From: Candidatus Methylomirabilota bacterium
Lineage (GTDB): Bacteria > Methylomirabilota > Methylomirabilia > Rokubacteriales > CSP1-6
Direction: 5' to 3'
Assembly: GCA_046726415.1 (NCBI GenBank)
Contig: JBKPAK010000084.1
Coordinates: 1-29,277 of the forward strand
DNA length: 29,277 bases
Positions 12,694 through 22,272 of the stretch are shown here, in pieces. Below the pieces are notes generated by a model. It was not told the DNA's origin. It was given only the letters and a program-made list of their open reading frames with translations, and made no database searches. The first letter of the stretch is position 1. Every line of letters starts with the position of its first letter. Made by a program: the position numbers and the translations under genes.

Positions 12694-12991
12694 TCGTGAC
12701 ACATGGAGGCCGTACCGCACGCCACGTACTTTCGTTCATCCTCGTCCTTGGCCTGGGTGGCCGCAATCCCTATGTCGCTGCCGTCTCGGTCGCCCACGAG
12801 ACGTATGGCGTGACCACCGACCTCCTCTCGCCGTCCACCCAGGAGGCGGACACGCAGGCCGAGGTCTAGCGCAACGCGGGACTCTTGGCTTCGACGGTGA
12901 AGGGCACCAGGACCGGCGGTACCTCAGGCGTGCGCGGGGGCCGGCGCTCCGCTACCATGGGGCCGCCCGTGTGTGCGCGTGGAGGTGGCGA

Positions 12992-13951
12992 TTGACGACG
13001 AGACCCCCGAGGAAGCGGTGCCCTCAGGGCCTGATTTCCCGTCGGGTGCTCTGGGCCGTCCTCGGGCTGGGGCTCGCGTGCGCAGGTGCCGCCACGGGCC
13101 AGGAACGAATCATCAAGGGCGCGGACGGCGCGGAGATGGTGCTCGTCCCCACCGGACCCTTCGCGATGGGAAGCGCCCCCACCGACATCGCGCGGGGCGT
13201 CGACGAGTGCCGCAAGCGAGCCAAGCCCGAGAACGAGCTCAAGTGCGAGGGCTGGTTCCGGTCGGAGGGGCCCCAGCACACCGTCGTTCTCGACGGCTTC
13301 TACATCGACCGGCATGAGGTCACCAGCGCTCAGTTCGAGAAGTTCGTGGCCGCCACCGGCTACCGGACGACCGCCGAACAAGACGGTCACGGCTGGGTCC
13401 ATCGAGAGAGGGACGGCACGTGGCGCTGGGAAAAGATTGAGGGAGCGAGCTGGCGTTCGCCCGGCGGGCCCGGGACGTCGGCTTCACCGACACACCCGGT
13501 GGTGCAGGTCTCGTGGTACGACGCCGACGCCTATTGCCGGTGGACCGGCGAGCGTCTGCCGACCGAGGCAGAGTGGGAGAAAGCCGCGCGCGGGACGGAT
13601 GGCCGACGCTACCCATGGGGCAACGAGTGGGATGCGGCTCGCGCCAACGCCCATCGGGTCGCCAAGGGGACGAGTCCGGTCGGAAGCCATCCATCCGGAG
13701 GAAGTCCATACGACATTCACGACATGGCGGGCAACGTCTGGGAGTGGACGGCCGACTGGTACGGCGCGGACTATTACCGGACCTCGCCGGAGCGGAATCC
13801 CGCGGGTCCGTCCAGCGGAAAGCATCGGGTCCTGCGCGGAGGGTCGTGGATCAACCTGCCGTTCTTTCTCGGCGTCGCCCATCGGCTCAACGAACCCCCG
13901 CAATCGCGGGGGATGAACGTGGGCTTCCGCTGTGCCAAGAGTCTGAACTGA
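12992..13951 (+). CDS. Secreted FGE-sulfatase (SUMF1/EgtB/PvdO) fold protein
   Basis: GGAGGTG RBS before TTG 12992; SRRVL signal; MVLVP.G.F.MG, HPVVQVSWYDA, RLPTEAEWEKAARG, DMAGNVWEW, RGGSW, GFRC. Confidence 0.9.
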   Translation: MTTRPPRKRCPQGLISRRVLWAVLGLGLACAGAATGQERIIKGADGAEMVLVPTGPFAMGSAPTDIARGVDECRKRAKPENELKCEGWFRSEGPQHTVVLDGFYIDRHEVTSAQFEKFVAATGYRTTAEQDGHGWVHRERDGTWRWEKIEGASWRSPGGPGTSASPTHPVVQVSWYDADAYCRWTGERLPTEAEWEKAARGTDGRRYPWGNEWDAARANAHRVAKGTSPVGSHPSGGSPYDIHDMAGNVWEWTADWYGADYYRTSPERNPAGPSSGKHRVLRGGSWINLPFFLGVAHRLNEPPQSRGMNVGFRCAKSLN

Positions 13952-13981: not shown

Positions 13982-14776
13982 ATGGCCTCTCGAGAGGGCC
14001 CGGCATGGTCGAGGGGGTGGCACCTGAGCTCTGTGGCCATTGGGGGCATCGTGTTGGCCTGTCTCGTGGGCGGGACGCTCCTCGGCATCGCGCTTCGGGA
14101 CATCCTACCCGCGCACCATCTCAACACGGAATCGCGCGATCTCGTCAGGCTGGGGATGGGACTGATCGCGACGATGTCGGCCCTGGTCCTGGGCCTGCTG
14201 ATCGCCTCGGCCAAGGGCTCGTACGAAGCGCAGGCGCACGAACTCACCCACCTGGCCACCAATGTCATCGTGCTCGACCGCGTCATGGCCCATTACGGAC
14301 CCGAGACGAAGGGCGTCCGCGAGCTCCTCCGCCGCGCAGTCGTCGATGCCGTCGCTCGGATGTGGCCCGAGCACGGGTCGCGGTCGGCCCAGCTGGAGCC
14401 GACCCCCAGGTCCGAGACCATCTATGACCAGATCCAGAAACTCTCGCCGCACAATGACGCTCAGCGCGCGCTCCAGGCTCGGGCCCTCGCCATCTGCATC
14501 GATCTCGCCCGAACGCGCTGGCTGCTCGTCGAGCAAAGCGACAGCTCCGTTCCGGTGCCCTTCCTCATCACGCTGGTCTTCTGGCTCACCATTCTCTTCG
14601 CCAGTTTCGGTCTCTTTGCGCCCCGCAACGTCACCGTGATCGCGACGCTATTCGTCTGTGCGCTCTCGGCGTCGAGCGCGGTCTTCCTCATCCTGCAGCT
14701 GGATCGGCCGTTCGGGGGGCTCATTCAGATCTCCAACGCTCCCCTGCGCAACGCTCTGCAGCATCTTGGCCAGTAG
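13982..14776 (+). CDS. DUF4239 (bestrophin-like) membrane protein
   Basis: LGMGLIATMSALVLGLLIASAK, LDR....YGPE, ILQLDRPFGGLIQIS..PLR motifs. Start may be near 14024. Confidence 0.8.
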   Translation: MASREGPAWSRGWHLSSVAIGGIVLACLVGGTLLGIALRDILPAHHLNTESRDLVRLGMGLIATMSALVLGLLIASAKGSYEAQAHELTHLATNVIVLDRVMAHYGPETKGVRELLRRAVVDAVARMWPEHGSRSAQLEPTPRSETIYDQIQKLSPHNDAQRALQARALAICIDLARTRWLLVEQSDSSVPVPFLITLVFWLTILFASFGLFAPRNVTVIATLFVCALSASSAVFLILQLDRPFGGLIQISNAPLRNALQHLGQ

Positions 14777-14777
14777 G

Positions 14778-14999
14778 ATGACGCGACCGCTCTCCATGGG
14801 GCGGCCAGCGACTCTGGCCGATCACGGCGTCATTTCCCAAGTTCTTGCCCTTCGGTTGGTGGGCGCGGCCGGGCTTCGCAACCTGGTCGCCCATCAGTAC
14901 GGCGCCGTCCAGTGGGGACGGATCTACGGCGCGGCGAGCTCGTCCGACCTTGATGAGCTGTAAGCGTTCAGCACCGCGCTTGCTGCGAAGGTTCGCTGA
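14778..14999 (+). pseudogene. HepT/DUF86 HEPN ribonuclease C-terminal remnant
   Basis: LADHGVI...LRLVGAAGLRNLVAHQYGAV (RxxxxH HEPN motif); premature TAA at 14961, frame continues AFSTALAAKVR*; N-terminus and MntA partner absent. Confidence 0.7.
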
Positions 15000-15015
15000 G
15001 GGCGGTGGCGGCGGC

Positions 15016-15429
15016 CTAGCTGCGCTCGCCCTCCTGCTGGCGCTCCAGGACGCGCGCGGTGGCTCGCCCCTTGTCGGGACTGGGATCCTTGACCACGCCG
15101 TACGCCTCGCGCCCCTCGTGGCCCTCAGGCAGGTACTCCGTGATGGGAACGCCTTCCGGGGTGACGAACAGGAGGCAGTGGCAATACTTGTACTTCTGCA
15201 TCTCGTCACAGGCGCAAATCCAGCGACGGAGTTTGGCCTCTTCCTTCGGATCCGGATAGAAGTTGCAGGGACAGAGCGGGCGGCCCACTTCCTCGATGTG
15301 ACGCGCCAGCCCCATCACCACTGTCTCGGTCACGCTGACATCGGGATGGAGCGACGTGCCGGACTTCTCTGCGTACTTACGGGCATACGCCCACATCTTG
15401 TCGATGTTGCCCTGCGCCGGCTGCTTCAT
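15016..15429 (-). CDS. Ferredoxin:thioredoxin reductase catalytic subunit (FTRc)
   Basis: GRPLCPC...WICAC..M..YKYCHCLLF: CPC/CxC/CHC pattern for a 4Fe-4S cluster and active-site disulfide; AGGGAG RBS. Confidence 0.9.
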   Translation of the reverse strand: MKQPAQGNIDKMWAYARKYAEKSGTSLHPDVSVTETVVMGLARHIEEVGRPLCPCNFYPDPKEEAKLRRWICACDEMQKYKYCHCLLFVTPEGVPITEYLPEGHEGREAYGVVKDPSPDKGRATARVLERQQEGERS

Positions 15430-15469
15430 GTCATCTCCCTGCCAGATCGAGCGAGCTGGGCGGGTTGCT

Positions 15470-15709
15470 CTACGCGAGCGCCGCCAGCGCCGCCTCGATG
15501 GCGTTGGGGTTGAAGCCCGTGAGCTTCTGGTCGCCGATGAGGAGCACGGGAAGCGAGAGCAACCCGAGCGCGATCAGCTCCTGTCGGGCCTCGGGATCCC
15601 GCCCCACATTCTTCTCGGTGAACTCGACACCCTTTTGCGATAGAAACTCTACCGCTTTGTGGCACGGCCCTCAGCCTATGTTCGTATAGATGGTGATCCG
15701 TGACGCCAC
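15470..15709 (-). CDS. NrdH/glutaredoxin-like selenoprotein, UxxC (UGPC), in-frame UGA at 15673-15671
   Basis: AGGAGG RBS, GTG 15709. MASRITIYTNIG-U-GPCHKAVEFLSQKGVEFTEKNVGRDPEARQELIALGLLSLPVLLIGDQKLTGFNPNAIEAALAALA* (79 aa), full Grx/NrdH pattern; not in ORF track. Confidence 0.9.
15637..15655 (-). promoter_or_regulatory. Putative bacterial SECIS element
   Basis: Minus strand GCGGTAGA-GTT-TCTATCGC: 8-bp stem (one G-U) with GUU loop, 15 nt after UGA. Confidence 0.75.
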
Positions 15710-15926
15710 CGGCGTCCTCCTTTCCCGCGCCTACGCGGTCACGTCGCGGACAATGAGCTGACCGAGACCGGGCCGAGACGGCGAGACAAGCGGTATCCAG
15801 CAGCCCATGCATCGTTGAATCCGCAAGGTTGTGATGCACTCCGGATGCTCACCGATGCGCTCGCCCTCATCCGCAGCGTCTCACCGATACGCCCGCACCC
15901 ATCCTAGGCGCGGGCGGGCACCGCGA

Positions 15927-16358
15927 TCAAGGTGCCTCGTTGGGTACGCCCCAGGGCGAGGTGGCCACCGGCACCACCGCAAAGGCCTCGATCTCCACCA
16001 GGATGTCGTCGCGCGAGAACCCCGCCACTTCTACCAGGGTACTCGCCGGTCTGGTGGAGCCGAAGTATTCTTGTCGGACCGGATTGATCCGGTCGCGGTC
16101 GGCTCCGTTGCGCAGGAAGACCGTGACCTTGCACACGTCGGCGAACGACGCGCCGGCGGCCTCCAGGCTCTTTCCGAGATTCTTGAGCACCTGCCGGGTC
16201 TGAGCCACGACGTCACGGCCCCCGACCACCTTCCCCTCCGCGTCGAGGGCGCTGCAGCCGGAGACGAAGATGAGCTGGCCGGCCCGGACGACGTGAACGT
16301 AATGGCTGGCCGGCTCTGGCAGGTCGGTGACGAAGATCTCGATCCGATCATCGCGCAT
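15927..16358 (-). CDS. RidA/YjgF/UK114 family protein
   Basis: HY.HVVRAGQLIFVSG, QTRQVLKN, KVTVFL, IN.VR..YFG..RPASTLVEV, VEIEA. Confidence 0.9.
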   Translation of the reverse strand: MRDDRIEIFVTDLPEPASHYVHVVRAGQLIFVSGCSALDAEGKVVGGRDVVAQTRQVLKNLGKSLEAAGASFADVCKVTVFLRNGADRDRINPVRQEYFGSTRPASTLVEVAGFSRDDILVEIEAFAVVPVATSPWGVPNEAP

Positions 16359-17535: not shown

Positions 17536-20500
17536 GTGAGTCGCCGCGGAGCCGTCCATGCGCTGGAAGCGTTCCATCCCGCCGTCCGCGATTGGTTCGC
17601 CGCCTCGTTCGCGGAGCCCACGCGGGCGCAGGCCCTCGGCTGGCCACCCATCGCGCGCGGTGAATCGGCGCTGATCCTCGCTCCGACGGGCAGCGGCAAG
17701 ACGCTGGCCGCCTTTCTCTCGTGCATCAACCGTCTGATGTTCGAAGCGACACCGCCGCGCGGCGAGCGCTGCCGCGTCCTCTACGTTTCGCCGCTCAAGG
17801 CCCTGGCGGTCGACATCGAGCGCAACCTGCGCCTTCCCCTCGCCGGCATCGCCGCCATGGCCTCGCGGCGCGGCGACCCCCACGTCGTCCCGGTGGTGGG
17901 CGTGCGCACCGGCGACACCCCCGCGCGGGACCGCGTCCGCTTCACCCGCGAGCCGGCCGACATCTTGATCACGACTCCGGAGTCGCTCTATCTGCTCCTC
18001 ACATCGAGGGCGCGCGAAGCGCTGCGCTCACTCGACACGGTCATCGTGGATGAGATCCACGCGCTGGTCCCCACCAAACGCGGTGCGCATCTCGCGCTGT
18101 CGCTCGAGCGTCTGGAGGTGCTGGCTGGCCGCCGTCTCCAGCGCATCGGCCTCTCCGCAACGCAGCGGCCGCTGGAGGAAGTTGCGCGCTTTCTCGGCGG
18201 CGCGCGCGTCTCATCGTGGCCGGATGCGCATTCTGCTCCGGCCGGTCTTGTCGCCCCCTGTGGCGAACATGCCGCAGTTTACCGCCAGGATACCGCGCCT
18301 CCAAAGACGTCCGCCGTGGCTGAGGACGGTGGGGAACCCGCATCGACGGACGCGGTGACGGGGAGGGCCAGCGGCACCGACGCCGACCTCGGACCGATGC
18401 CGGCAAGGGACGAAGTCGATGACGAGGCGGCGGCCGCGGGGCTGGCGGCGAGCGCCAAGGTGCACGAGGAGTTCGCGATACATGAAGGCGCCGTCGAGTA
18501 TCGGGCAGTCACCATTGTGGATGCGGGGGAGCGTAAGCCGCTGGAGCTGCGCATCGAGGTGCCGGTCGAGGACATGGCGCGGCCCGCCGAGCCCGCCGGC
18601 CCGGGCGGGCCCGCGGGACGAGACCCGGGACGCACCTCCATCTGGACGGCCATTCATCCGCGCCTCCTGGAGCTGGTCCGCGAGCATCACTCCACCCTGA
18701 TCTTCGTGAACAGCCGGCGCATCGCCGAGCGGCTGGCGGCCGCGCTCAACGACCTGGCCGGCGATCCGCTGGCGCGCGCGCACCATGGCTCCATCGCGCG
18801 CGAGCAGCGGCTCGAGATCGAGGAGCAGCTCAAGGCAGGGCAGATCCGGGCCCTGGTGGCCACCTCGTCGCTCGAGCTGGGCATCGACATGGGGGCCATC
18901 GACCTGGTGATCCAGGTCGAGGCGCCGCCGTCGGTGACCAGCGGGCTCCAGCGAATCGGTCGCGCCGGCCATCAGGTGAGCGCGGTGAGCCGCGGCATCA
19001 TCTTCCCGAAGTTCCGGGGCGGCCTCGTGGCCTGCGCCGCGGTGGCGCGGCTGATGCGCGATGGTCAGGTGGAGCCCACCCGCTATCCGCGCAACCCACT
19101 CGATGTGCTCTCCCAGCATATCGTCGCCATGGTGGCCCTGGAGCGTTGGGACATCGATGCCCTCTACCACACCGTGCGGCAGGCGGCGCCCTTCGCCGAG
19201 CTGAGCCCTCGCATCTTCGAGAGCGTGATGGACATGCTCGCCGGCCGCTATCCCTCCGACGAGTTCGCCGAGCTGCGCCCGCGTCTGACGTGGGATCGCG
19301 TGGGCCGGCGGCTGACCGCGCGCGCCGGCGCGCGTCACGTGGCCGTGGTCAACGGTGGCACCATTCCCGATCGCGGTCTCTACGGCGTGTTCCTGGCCGG
19401 CACCGAGACCCCCGTCCGCGTCGGAGAACTCGACGAGGAGATGGTGTTCGAGAGCCGCGTCGGCGAGACCTTCGTGCTCGGGGCTTCCACCTGGCGCATC
19501 GAGGAGATCACGCACGACCGGGTGCTTGTCTCGCCTGCCCCCGGCGAACCCGGCAAGATGCCTTTCTGGCGCGGCGAGGCCGCCGGCCGGCCAGTTGAGC
19601 TCGGGCGACAGATCGGGGAGCTGGTCCGCGAGCTGCGCGAGATGCCATCCGCCGCGGCACGCCAGCGCCTGATCGGCCGCCACGATCTCGATGCTCAGGC
19701 GGCCGCCAATCTCCTGCTCTACCTGCAAGACCAGGCGGCGGCCGGCGCCGTGCCCGACGATGGGACCGTCGTCATCGAGCGCTGCCGCGACGAGTTGGGC
19801 GACTGGCGGCTCTGTGTGCTCTCCCCACTCGGCGGGCGCATCCACGCTCCGTGGTCGATGGCGGTGATGGCCAAGGTCCGTCGCGAGAGGGGGATCGAGG
19901 TCGACACCATGTGGACGGACGATGGCTTCGTCGTCCGATTCCCAGAGACGGACGAGCCGCCCGATCCCCAGCTCGCCCTACCCGATCCCTGCGAGGCGGA
20001 GGAGCTCGTGGTCGGCCAGCTCGGATCCACCGCGCTCTTTGCCGCGAAGTTCCGCGAGGCGGCCAGTCGCGCCCTGCTCCTTCCCCGGCGCCGTCCGGGA
20101 GGGCGAGCGCCCCTCTGGCAACAGCGCAAGCGGGCTGCCGACTTGCTCGCGGTGGCCGCGCCATACGGCTCCTTCCCAATACTGCTTGAGACGTATCGCG
20201 AGTGCCTGCGCGACGTTTTCGACATCCCCGCCCTCCTGGCCACCCTGCGTGACGTGGCCAGCCACACCATCCGCACGGTCACCCTGGACTCTCGAGTCCC
20301 TTCGCCGTTCGCGGCCGCCCTCCTGTTCGGGTACGTTGCCAACTACATCTACGAGGGCGATGCCCCGCTGGCCGAACGGCGGGCTCAAGCCCTGGCCATC
20401 GATGGCGATCAACTCCGGGAGTTGCTCGGTGCGGCGTCGTTGCGCGAGCTGCTCGACGCCGACGCCATCGCGAGCCTCGAGCGCCAGCTGCAGCACCTGG

Positions 20501-22272
20501 ACGAGCGTTCGCGCGCCCGCCACGCCGACGCCGTTCACGATCTGCTCCTGCGCGTGGGAGATCTCTCGAGTGACGAGCTACAGGCCCGCATGGCCGAGGG
20601 CACTGCCGTGGCGACGATCGAGGCGCTCGTCGCCGAGGGGCGGGCCGTGGTTCTCCCCGTGGCGGGCCGATCGCGATATGTCGCCGTCGAGGACGTCGCC
20701 CGCTACCGGGATGCGCTGGGCCTTCCGTTGCCCCCGGGCATTCCCGATGCGCTGCTCACGGCCGTGCGCGATCCACACGGCGATCTGGCGCACCGCTACG
20801 CGCGCACGCACGGGCCCTTCACCACCGAGGAGGTGGCCGGCCGGTACGGACTCTCGCGCTCCGCTGCGGATCGCGCGCTGAGGCGGCTGGCCGCGGCCGG
20901 CCGGCTGCTGGAAGGCGAGTTCCGCCCCGGCCGCGTGGGACGTGAGTGGTGTGATCCCGGCGTGCTGGCCACCGTGCGCCGTCGCTCGCTGGCGAAGCTA
21001 CGCACCGAGGTGGAACCGGTGGCTCAGGCGGTGCTCGGCCGCCTCATCACGACCTGGCAAGGCGTGATCAAGAGCCGGCGCGGCCTCGACGTCCTCCTCG
21101 ACGCGATCGAGAATCTCCAGGGGGCTCCCCTTCCCGCCTCGATCTTCGAGCGCGAGATCCTGGCCGCGCGCGTGGAGGGCTATCTGCCGGGCGACCTCGA
21201 CACCTTGACGGCGGCGGGCGAGGTCGTGTGGTGCGGCGTGGAACCGCTCGGCGAGCGCGACGGCCGGATCGCGCTGTTCCTCACCGATCACCAGGCGCGT
21301 CTGTGGCGGCCGCCGGCGCCTGCTGGAGCCGGAGATCTGACGCCGCTGGAGCTGCGAATTCTCGAATACCTCCGCGAGCACGGCGCGTCGTTCTTCAATG
21401 TCCTGCACGGGGGCATCGGTGGCGGTTTTGCCGGCGACCTCCTCGATGCCGTGTGGAACCTCGTCTGGCGAGGGCTCGTCACGAACGATGGCCTTCACGC
21501 GCTCCGCGCCTTCACCGCGCCCCGTGAGCGGCGCGATCGGCGGACCCGCGTGCTCCATCACGCCTTTCGCTCCCGGCGGACGACGCCCCCCGGCGGCGAG
21601 GGGCGGTGGACGCTCACCTCCTCGCGCGTCGCAGCGCTGCCGTCGGCGACGGAGTGGAGCGCGGCGGTCGTCCAGCAGCTCCTCCGGCGCTACGGAATCG
21701 TGTCGCGCGAGTCGGTGGTGACCGAGGGGGTGCCCGGCGGCTTCGCCGCGGTCTACGAGGTGTTCAAGGCGCTCGAAGACGCCGCGCGCATCCGCCGCGG
21801 CTACTTCGCGACCGGCGTGGGCGCGGTGCAGTTCGCCCTGCCTGCTGCGCTCGAGCAACTCCGCATGCTTCGCGATCCGCCCGCGTCACCGGAGGTCGTT
21901 CTGCTCGCCGCCTCCGATCCCGCCAATCCGTACGGAGCTATTTTGAAATGGCCCGAGGGGGACGCCGGGCGACCGCCTCTCCGGTCGGTGGGAGCCCATG
22001 TCGTCCTCGTCAACGGCGCGGCCGCCGCCTATCTCGCGCGCGGCGGCCGCCAACTCACGGCATGGCTGCCGGACGACGAACCCGAGCGCTCCGCGGTGGC
22101 GCGAGCGGTGGCGGCGGTACTCGCCGACCTCGCCCGGCGAGACGGGCTGCTGCTCAGCGAGATCAACGGGGCGCTGGCGGGCCAGCATGCCCTGGCCCCC
22201 GCGCTGGCCGAAGCGGGGTTCGTCGCCTCGGCGCTCGGCTTCAGCGTGCGGCGATCGTCGGCGCGCGTCTGA
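17536..22272 (+). CDS. lhr: Long Lhr family SF2 helicase with C-terminal winged-helix/glycosylase-like region
   Basis: APTGSGKT, SPLKAL, TTPESL, VDEIH, GLSAT, HHGS, TSSLELGID, QRIGRAGH, GELDEEMVFESR; 1578 aa. Confidence 0.93.
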   Translation: MSRRGAVHALEAFHPAVRDWFAASFAEPTRAQALGWPPIARGESALILAPTGSGKTLAAFLSCINRLMFEATPPRGERCRVLYVSPLKALAVDIERNLRLPLAGIAAMASRRGDPHVVPVVGVRTGDTPARDRVRFTREPADILITTPESLYLLLTSRAREALRSLDTVIVDEIHALVPTKRGAHLALSLERLEVLAGRRLQRIGLSATQRPLEEVARFLGGARVSSWPDAHSAPAGLVAPCGEHAAVYRQDTAPPKTSAVAEDGGEPASTDAVTGRASGTDADLGPMPARDEVDDEAAAAGLAASAKVHEEFAIHEGAVEYRAVTIVDAGERKPLELRIEVPVEDMARPAEPAGPGGPAGRDPGRTSIWTAIHPRLLELVREHHSTLIFVNSRRIAERLAAALNDLAGDPLARAHHGSIAREQRLEIEEQLKAGQIRALVATSSLELGIDMGAIDLVIQVEAPPSVTSGLQRIGRAGHQVSAVSRGIIFPKFRGGLVACAAVARLMRDGQVEPTRYPRNPLDVLSQHIVAMVALERWDIDALYHTVRQAAPFAELSPRIFESVMDMLAGRYPSDEFAELRPRLTWDRVGRRLTARAGARHVAVVNGGTIPDRGLYGVFLAGTETPVRVGELDEEMVFESRVGETFVLGASTWRIEEITHDRVLVSPAPGEPGKMPFWRGEAAGRPVELGRQIGELVRELREMPSAAARQRLIGRHDLDAQAAANLLLYLQDQAAAGAVPDDGTVVIERCRDELGDWRLCVLSPLGGRIHAPWSMAVMAKVRRERGIEVDTMWTDDGFVVRFPETDEPPDPQLALPDPCEAEELVVGQLGSTALFAAKFREAASRALLLPRRRPGGRAPLWQQRKRAADLLAVAAPYGSFPILLETYRECLRDVFDIPALLATLRDVASHTIRTVTLDSRVPSPFAAALLFGYVANYIYEGDAPLAERRAQALAIDGDQLRELLGAASLRELLDADAIASLERQLQHLDERSRARHADAVHDLLLRVGDLSSDELQARMAEGTAVATIEALVAEGRAVVLPVAGRSRYVAVEDVARYRDALGLPLPPGIPDALLTAVRDPHGDLAHRYARTHGPFTTEEVAGRYGLSRSAADRALRRLAAAGRLLEGEFRPGRVGREWCDPGVLATVRRRSLAKLRTEVEPVAQAVLGRLITTWQGVIKSRRGLDVLLDAIENLQGAPLPASIFEREILAARVEGYLPGDLDTLTAAGEVVWCGVEPLGERDGRIALFLTDHQARLWRPPAPAGAGDLTPLELRILEYLREHGASFFNVLHGGIGGGFAGDLLDAVWNLVWRGLVTNDGLHALRAFTAPRERRDRRTRVLHHAFRSRRTTPPGGEGRWTLTSSRVAALPSATEWSAAVVQQLLRRYGIVSRESVVTEGVPGGFAAVYEVFKALEDAARIRRGYFATGVGAVQFALPAALEQLRMLRDPPASPEVVLLAASDPANPYGAILKWPEGDAGRPPLRSVGAHVVLVNGAAAAYLARGGRQLTAWLPDDEPERSAVARAVAAVLADLARRDGLLLSEINGALAGQHALAPALAEAGFVASALGFSVRRSSARV

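Follow-up and report, generated by a model that had tools for sequence, protein, structure and literature searches.

Known systems closest to the locus

Bacterial selenoproteins of the glutaredoxin (Grx) and Grx-like kind with a UxxC active site, in which selenocysteine (Sec, U) stands for the first cysteine, are already in print, as is a ferredoxin:thioredoxin reductase (FTR) that itself contains Sec; both are reported in the accessible portions of the 2008 Global Ocean Sampling (GOS) study by Zhang & Gladyshev (PMC2398784) and of a 2026 review (PMC13188914). Here we analyzed a pair of adjacent genes in a 29,277-nt stretch of DNA from a Candidatus Methylomirabilota bacterium (assembly GCA_046726415.1, contig JBKPAK010000084.1, positions 1 to 29,277; hereafter the window), which encode a putative UxxC redoxin and the catalytic subunit of FTR (FTRc). 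Our results suggest that the redoxin is a selenoprotein that is hidden from ordinary gene calling and is functionally coupled to FTRc. A selenoprotein Grx of Clostridium was reportedly described by Kim et al. in 2011.

According to the accessible text of PMC9025218, the variable subunit of FTR is exclusive to oxygenic phototrophs, and FTRc without the variable subunit occurs in non-phototrophs (citing Balsera 2013). In Methanosarcina, an FTRc-related ferredoxin:disulfide reductase (FDR) is reported to reduce a non-canonical thioredoxin and, by the title of a cited paper, to deliver electrons to class III ribonucleotide reductase (RNR); the reductant listed for that RNR subtype is the glutaredoxin-like NrdH (PMC6262447 and PMC9176816, in their accessible portions). 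An earlier reading of the window from its letters alone (the sequence-only reading) had proposed a relay from ferredoxin through FTRc to the redoxin and had known of no characterised example. This does not hold for the cysteine version, given the thioredoxin reduced by the Methanosarcina FDR and the NrdH-type reductant listed in the portions seen of these two papers. FTRc with a conserved selenoprotein partner, or this pair, was not found in the literature searched, where several key papers and supplements were beyond reach. We see in the redoxin-FTRc pair a version of systems of known kinds, not a category of its own.

The redoxin gene has an in-frame TGA predicted to be read as Sec

The pair is on the window's minus strand. 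The redoxin gene (15470..15709) has a GTG start, 79 codons and a TAG stop (15472-15470), and a Shine-Dalgarno sequence, GGAGG, was read 6 nt upstream of the start (15716..15720, minus strand). Codon 13 is an in-frame TGA (15671..15673, minus strand) that aligns with the first cysteine of CxxC. When it is read as Sec, the product runs ...YTNIG-U-GPC-HK... around this codon and has the Grx/NrdH fold with the site U13-G-P-C16. The gene is hidden because the plain list of open reading frames (ORFs) gives its 45-aa tail only (15607-15470). A spacer of 40 nt (15430..15469, minus strand), which holds the ribosome-binding site GGGAG of the next gene (15435-15439), separates the redoxin stop from the FTRc gene (15016..15429, minus strand; ATG start, 137 aa, TAG stop). 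The sequence-only reading had described a hidden 79-aa gene with a ribosome-binding site, a UGA in place of the first cysteine of CxxC and a co-oriented FTRc start 40 bp on, and its coordinates and description of both genes proved exact. Purine-rich sites of the GGAG/GAGG/AGGA type precede the chosen redoxin start in nearly all orthologue loci (script, 52 loci).

The host genome of the window (7.6 Mb, 352 contigs, 98% complete) carries the whole Sec machinery, selA, selB, selC and selD all scoring above curated cut-offs. The tRNA-Sec reached 71 bits, the gathering score being 47, and was called SeC(tca) by ARAGORN; selA (592 bits) and selB (374 bits) share its contig. The selD gene (336 bits; G000:C223:11994-12938, L019) has one in-frame TGA of its own, so it presumably encodes a selenoprotein as well.

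Downstream of the TGA we found a hairpin of the bacterial Sec insertion sequence (bSECIS) type (15637..15655, minus strand; 19 nt, 8-bp stem, apical loop G-U-U), which begins 15 nt after the TGA and whose loop lies 23 nt from the UGA. Its minimum free energy (MFE), folded alone, is -8.6 kcal/mol, and none of 200 shuffles was as good. The bSECIS model in the accessible text of PMC13188914 has an apical loop of 3-9 nt with G in its two leading positions, a stem of 4-16 bp, a distance of 16-37 nt from the UGA and an MFE <= -7.5 kcal/mol; the redoxin hairpin lies within all four constraints. Folding of 66 nt around the UGA gave no significant result by itself (z -1.06).

The hairpin also covaries. 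Among 51 distinct sequences (44 orthologues and 7 paralogues), pairing was kept in 99.8% of 408 cells, with changes on both sides at three of the eight pairs. One pair was UA in 30 sequences, CG in 14 and AU in 7, and there the 5' arm encodes an amino-acid replacement, to which a synonymous change of a Leu codon on the 3' arm corresponds. The covariation score was reached by none of 500 shuffles, and with the partner shifted by 1-3 columns the pairing fell to 54% or less.

Conservation of the TGA was examined in a phylum survey of 251 genomes, with a redoxin orthologue defined by E <= 1e-20. Orthologues were found in 66 genomes, one in each (one of them, G240, is unpublished and is included in this count and in that of genomes with both genes below). 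Every one of the 66 had a single TGA, kept at codon 13. The DNA of 52 orthologue segments was also compared; several loci of the two collections are from the same genomes, and 45 segments were distinct. The TGA was invariant in all 45, while the flanking codons had drifted mainly at third positions: variation there was 0.356 vs 0.225/0.166 at the others upstream of the TGA, and 0.414 vs 0.191/0.148 downstream.

Forms with cysteine in the TGA column exist and are rare: P0124 (72% identity, a single sequence), P0245 (56%) and P0257 (52%), and also PDB 7c10_A. One single-sequence metagenome cluster, P0123, has Gly at the Sec site. Whether homologues have Cys or TGA at residue 13, a check that the sequence-only reading had proposed, is answered by TGA in all orthologues of the survey and rare Cys forms elsewhere. 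Evidence from metagenome and RNA libraries came from four runs, all as contigs; no variant at 15671-15673 was listed in the contigs of these four covering runs, which is a weak support. In 19 studies, metagenome runs of soil or rhizosphere were found to contain the window stretch or close relatives of it.

Decoding of the codon-13 TGA as Sec is well supported by these comparisons, and Sec would be inserted in vivo. The sequence-only reading had made its proposal depend on Sec machinery in the genome, on conservation of the TGA and a hairpin, and on linkage to FTRc; the machinery proved present (tRNA-Sec, selA, selB and selD), the TGA is kept together with a covarying hairpin, and the linkage is conserved as described below.

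Public gene calls miss the redoxin. Among 120 matches listed from a collection of 5.8 billion protein clusters, the full-length protein appeared in two, one being a Cys form and the other having Gly at the Sec site. Most other redoxin clusters listed (P0125-P0242) are fragments of 45-62 aa that start after the TGA, and the named ones are mostly 'hypothetical protein'. The gene is thus systematically mis-called, and redox reconstructions of an abundant soil phylum therefore miss it. We regard it as a real and conserved gene for a predicted selenoprotein, whose mis-annotation is widespread.

Family and relatives of the redoxin

The redoxin is a member of the glutaredoxin fold family by Pfam PF00462 (52.6 bits, cut-off 22.9). 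It is below the cut-off of every curated NCBIfam model for Grx, NrdH, YruB and UXX-star proteins, the best being YruB-type TIGR02196 (65.7 bits, cut-off 88.55), followed by NrdH TIGR02194 (54.9 bits, cut-off 85.75). The UXX-star models NF041212, NF041114, NF041211 and NF047338 gave at most 40 bits, their cut-offs being 66-100; we take their name to mean a Sec three residues before the C-terminus, and the Sec of the redoxin is residue 13 of 79. The nearest solved relatives were 7c10_A, named 'Glutaredoxin' (CPHC, E 1.6e-14) and presumably from Clostridium oremlandii, and then NrdH 1h75_A (E 1e-11). The xGPC dipeptide of the active site is of thioredoxin type, and the protein has a cis-Pro-type SLP motif.

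The redoxin shares with NrdH and YruB redoxins its size, its fold and its best profile matches (NrdH structures are PDB 1h75, 4hs1 and 1r7h). NrdH proteins carry the motif WSGFRP, which the C-terminal G-F-N-P stretch of the redoxin resembles. It differs from them in being below both cut-offs, in lacking the CVQC motif and in having no RNR gene nearby. Class III RNR (NrdD) was not found in the host genome, and a link to class III RNR as in Methanosarcina was rejected on this ground. No gshB gene (TIGR01380) turned up in the host genome (98% complete) either, where other thiol pathways were not searched for. The redoxin would work like NrdH and YruB redoxins and is closer to them than to a glutathione-dependent glutaredoxin; its reduction by thioredoxin reductase rather than glutathione is likely. 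The name 'glutaredoxin' used in the sequence-only reading therefore stands for the fold and for Sec at the first position of CxxC, and gives way to NrdH/YruB for the nearest family, with the thioredoxin-type xGPC.

With the bacterial UxxC Grx selenoproteins described in the accessible literature, the redoxin has in common the Grx fold, Sec for the first Cys, an in-gene bSECIS hairpin and the existence of Cys homologues. It differs in its UGPC site, in scoring below all curated cut-offs and in a Sec that is nearly fixed (66/66). It also differs in its link to FTRc, which is absent from the portions of PMC2398784 and PMC13188914 covered.

The redoxin is not the only gene of its kind in the host genome. 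In four further Grx-like genes (L141-L144), the first CxxC position is taken by an in-frame TGA (G000:C156:86556-86771, G000:C199:7003-7215, G000:C347:5405-5608 and G000:C178:34353-34559). Two of the four have U-Q-S-C and similar upstream leaders, and one has U-S-S-C in an open frame that goes on for ~170 residues beyond the Grx-like domain. Among the Grx-like matches listed in 41 related genomes (including the unpublished G011), 80 of 83 had one or two in-frame TGAs. This abundance is in line with one metagenome-assembled genome of Methylomirabilota for which, in the accessible text of the 2026 review, 63 selenoprotein genes are predicted (PMC13188914).

FTRc without a variable subunit

FTRc matched Pfam PF02943 (FeThRed_B) with 84.8 bits against a cut-off of 22, and Synechocystis FTRc (PDB 1dj7_A) with E 1.7e-22. 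Its cluster and active-site motifs C53-P-C55, C72-A-C74 and C83-H84-C85 (15175..15273, minus strand) are in register with CPC, CPC and CHC of 1dj7_A, all seven residues aligning, and they were invariant in 15 of 15 members of the subfamily. The gene is the sole copy in the host genome (a single match); its frame has no internal TGA, and Cys stands at both redox positions.

The sequence-only reading had noted that no variable-subunit gene is adjacent, and this extends to the whole genome: the variable subunit (PF02941) had no match anywhere in the 98%-complete assembly. This speaks against FTRc as part of a classical heterodimeric FTR. Compared with the cyanobacterial and chloroplast enzymes (1dj7, 2pvo, 7bzk), FTRc has the same CPC, CxC and CHC motifs over ~83 alignable residues, and by analogy ferredoxin would be expected to pass its electrons on to a redoxin of the CGPC type. 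The differences are the missing variable subunit, a C-terminal extension of ~45 residues and a presumed acceptor that combines the Grx fold with Sec.

The extension (residues 93-137; 15019..15153, minus strand) is highly conserved over its first ~30 residues. Invariant positions in alignment A1 are G93, P95, T97, E98, L100, P101, H104, E105, G106, R107, Y110, G111, D115, P116, P118, G121, R122 and A123. The matches to FTRc chains in PDB end at residue 93, the extension being absent from the cyanobacterial and plant chains, and a single-sequence fold of FTRc (mean predicted local distance difference test score 45.8) was too low in confidence to place it. A conserved C-terminal extension is common to the FTRc subfamily of Rokubacteria, Entotheonella-type, Nitrospira-type and Chloroflexota genomes.

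Archaeal FDR consists of an FTRc-like domain fused to a rubredoxin domain, and the chain of its structure 4tpu is named 'Rubredoxin'. FTRc here lacks a rubredoxin domain (PF02943 was the only Pfam match), and it matches 4tpu_A at E 5e-10 only, compared with 1.7e-22 for plant-type FTRc. The system here is bacterial, its acceptor would be a selenoprotein and NrdD is missing. As far as the accessible literature describes FDR, the two are alike in being FTRc-related enzymes without a variable subunit and, as predicted for FTRc here, with a [4Fe-4S] cluster; the acceptors of FDR are of thioredoxin or NrdH type. Another relative is the FtrB double-selenoprotein (NF041072), which belongs to the same FTRc family and also uses selenium; its Sec is inside FTRc, whereas here the selenium would be in the partner redoxin. 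FTRc as an FtrB double-selenoprotein was ruled out (39.3 bits vs a cut-off of 160, no internal TGA).

Linkage of the redoxin and FTRc genes

Among the 251 genomes of the survey, FTRc was found in 61; both genes were present in 58, the redoxin alone in 8, FTRc alone, of a shorter type, in 3, and neither in 182. Each of these 58 genomes has the two on one contig and one strand, the redoxin being upstream, and the gap from match to match is 32-137 nt. The FTRc neighbourhood of homologues, which the sequence-only reading had suggested as a check, therefore shows FTRc following directly on the same strand in 58 of 66 redoxin genomes. In one class-level relative, two equal-scoring FTRc matches of the short type occur 12 kb apart (G047:C74:663-911, minus strand, and 12790-13038, plus strand).

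Species-representative genomes were also scanned with the FTRc alignment, and the best 80 of 572 relatives were examined. All 32 loci among these with FTRc identity of at least 78% had a TGA redoxin directly upstream; by title, 30 were Rokubacteria or Methylomirabilota, one was Acidoferrum and one 'uncultured bacterium'. In seven Entotheonella/Tectomicrobia-type loci, the redoxin neighbours FTRc in another arrangement, convergent at ~50-100 nt in six and at 2.4 kb in one, and all have the TGA. No TGA redoxin was found within 3 kb of the 41 Nitrospira-type and Chloroflexota-type FTRc loci among the best 80. By its named homologues, the lineage of the module is Candidatus Rokubacteria/Methylomirabilota.

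The redoxin-FTRc linkage is conserved in Rokubacteria/Methylomirabilota, and a putative functional coupling of the two proteins is well supported by comparative genomics. One 171-nt contig from an RNA library (15412-15583) includes the redoxin gene's 3' part and the spacer; as it reaches only 18 nt into FTRc, it is too little for a claim of co-transcription.

A proposed ferredoxin-driven relay and its alternatives

We consider it probable that the locus is a two-gene module of a Sec redoxin and a single-subunit FTRc, which is driven by ferredoxin, with NADPH-thioredoxin reductase probably charging the same redoxin in parallel. From the gene linkage we infer an electron relay of ferredoxin -> FTRc -> selenenylsulfide redoxin, in which the two proteins would interact physically and electrons would presumably flow in this direction. 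The xGPC dipeptide of the redoxin and the complete CPC/CxC/CHC set of FTRc fit such a relay, as do the gshB search without a match, the best redoxin scores being with YruB/NrdH-type models, and the reported reduction of thioredoxin-type proteins by FTRc-related enzymes of Methanosarcina.

In FTR, an exposed cysteine attacks the N-terminal active-site residue of the acceptor, and a second electron resolves the mixed intermediate. The FTR reaction pathway as solved (2pvo and other entries) served as the model for the steps of the relay. SelB and tRNA-Sec would place Sec, the predicted nucleophile of the active site, at the UGA under the guidance of the hairpin 15 nt downstream. Reduced ferredoxin would then give electrons singly to the [4Fe-4S]/disulfide centre of FTRc, and the exposed C55 would attack the Se-S bond of the oxidised redoxin, giving a transient mixed S-Se intermediate. 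A second electron would free the reduced selenol/thiol redoxin, which may go on to reduce disulfides or sulfenic acids in client proteins.

Such a module suggests a ferredoxin-driven, selenium-dependent route of protein disulfide reduction in soil Rokubacteria. If the relay is true, it would join bacterial selenoproteomes with ferredoxin-dependent thioredoxin reduction outside photosynthesis, which have so far been studied separately, and it would give the FTRc homologues of non-phototrophs a concrete client. It would also be a natural case for why Sec is retained, found as it is in every orthologue of the survey vs very rare Cys forms.

Several observations weigh against this ferredoxin-driven module. 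Eight genomes have the redoxin without FTRc; in two of them the contig ends at the gene, and at least six are not so explained. Two redoxin-only genomes are each 98% complete, one of them a single contig, and have the gene amid transporter genes. Conversely, no redoxin orthologue was found in five whole genomes with the same FTRc subfamily (two Nitrospira-type and three Chloroflexota-type), and therefore this FTRc does not need the redoxin. The Entotheonella-type pair is convergent and is thus not an operon there. The collections overlap, and related genomes are not independent of one another; what the counts give is a pattern, not a statistical test. Finally, 11 of the 32 related loci have a trxB of the same orientation directly upstream, giving the order trxB, Sec-redoxin, FTRc.

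The trxB-bearing loci belong to one Rokubacteria subclade (L058, L059, L062-L067, L070, L071, which is partial, and L073), and trxB has the same place and orientation in L031. The upstream gene (in L058 at 1739-2677) is a genuine thioredoxin-disulfide reductase gene, which scored 405 bits against the cut-off of 343 for TIGR01292 and has CATC and HRRDALR motifs. Because of this arrangement, NADPH may be a donor of the redoxin, or the main one. We read the redoxin as a thioredoxin-like carrier that would be chargeable from NADPH as well as from ferredoxin. The claim of the sequence-only reading that the relay is independent of NADPH is doubtful in view of these loci and of the genomes that have the redoxin without FTRc.

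A stronger form of the proposal, quite possible though we hold it only tentatively, is a dedicated third thiol-reducing system of soil Rokubacteria and Entotheonella-type bacteria, in which FTRc, lacking a variable subunit, would take electrons from ferredoxin and serve an obligate selenoprotein acceptor with the glutaredoxin fold and a UGPC site of thioredoxin type. In Grx scaffolds, a selenenylsulfide exchanges faster than a disulfide and has a lower potential, which would suit a low-potential donor. Selenium would be kept because the mixed S-Se intermediate and the lower selenenylsulfide potential match the one-electron, low-potential chemistry of FTR. If this is true, it would be the first FTR with a selenoprotein as physiological substrate.

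It is unlikely that the redoxin is simply an NrdH-like substrate of NADPH-thioredoxin reductase, with FTRc no more than a co-regulated neighbour that reduces another protein such as canonical thioredoxin. E. coli NrdH is reduced by thioredoxin reductase, and the upstream trxB of the 11 loci, the one true trxB that the host genome has elsewhere, the redoxin genomes without FTRc (at least six, with contig ends not the cause) and the FTRc subfamily without redoxin in Nitrospira-type and Chloroflexota-type genomes all agree with this explanation. It has to face the position of FTRc immediately downstream in 58 of 66 redoxin genomes, however, and a neighbourhood that outlasts rearrangement in a second lineage. 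The trxB of the window's genome is on another contig, and the NADPH and ferredoxin routes are not exclusive.

It is much less probable that the role of the redoxin toward FTRc is structural or protective, in which case it would replace the variable subunit in a stable heterodimer rather than act as a diffusible carrier. The lack of a variable subunit in the genome and the co-occurring genes coupled at 40 nt are consistent with such a role, but the invariant Sec-x-x-Cys, the cost of Sec insertion and the SLP motif point to catalysis, each protein is found without the other in some genomes, and the FTRc subfamily has a conserved C-terminal extension of its own. That the TGA is a genuine stop, the gene being a pseudogene or encoding a short upstream peptide so that at most the 45-residue tail is made, is hardly credible: the fragments given by public gene callers and the Gly of P0123 would agree with it, but the TGA is invariant amid synonymous drift of the flanking codons, a ribosome-binding site precedes the upstream GTG/ATG, the covarying hairpin comes with complete Sec machinery, and the tail alone would lack the fold's first strand and its active site.

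Neighbouring genes

In the window, the pair is flanked upstream by genes for RidA and enoyl-CoA hydratase and downstream by a HepT-like ORF on the opposite strand. The genes beyond the pair vary between subclades, and comparison of the neighbourhoods revealed no third gene conserved beside it across all subclades. No promoter-like or terminator-like sites were found in 14700-16100 by a simple scan, and an Rfam search of the module region gave no match. The only trxB scored as true in the host genome is the one on another contig mentioned above.

Another subclade has, ~0.8 kb downstream of FTRc, a CMD/AhpD-like gene (at the Pfam cut-off; L045:4180-4686) and then a gene for a TPR protein, which may point to a peroxidase-related client; 13 further loci (L046-L054, L056, L057, L060 and L061) show the same. 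The HepT-like ORF of the window (14658-14963, plus strand; 101 aa) matched the HepT-like ribonuclease family with E 5.5e-8 and overlaps the 3' end of a gene for a Bestrophin-like membrane protein (13982-14776). A gene for a large helicase of the Lhr type (17536-22272, plus strand; 1578 residues) lies on the opposite strand, ~1.8 kb away from the module.

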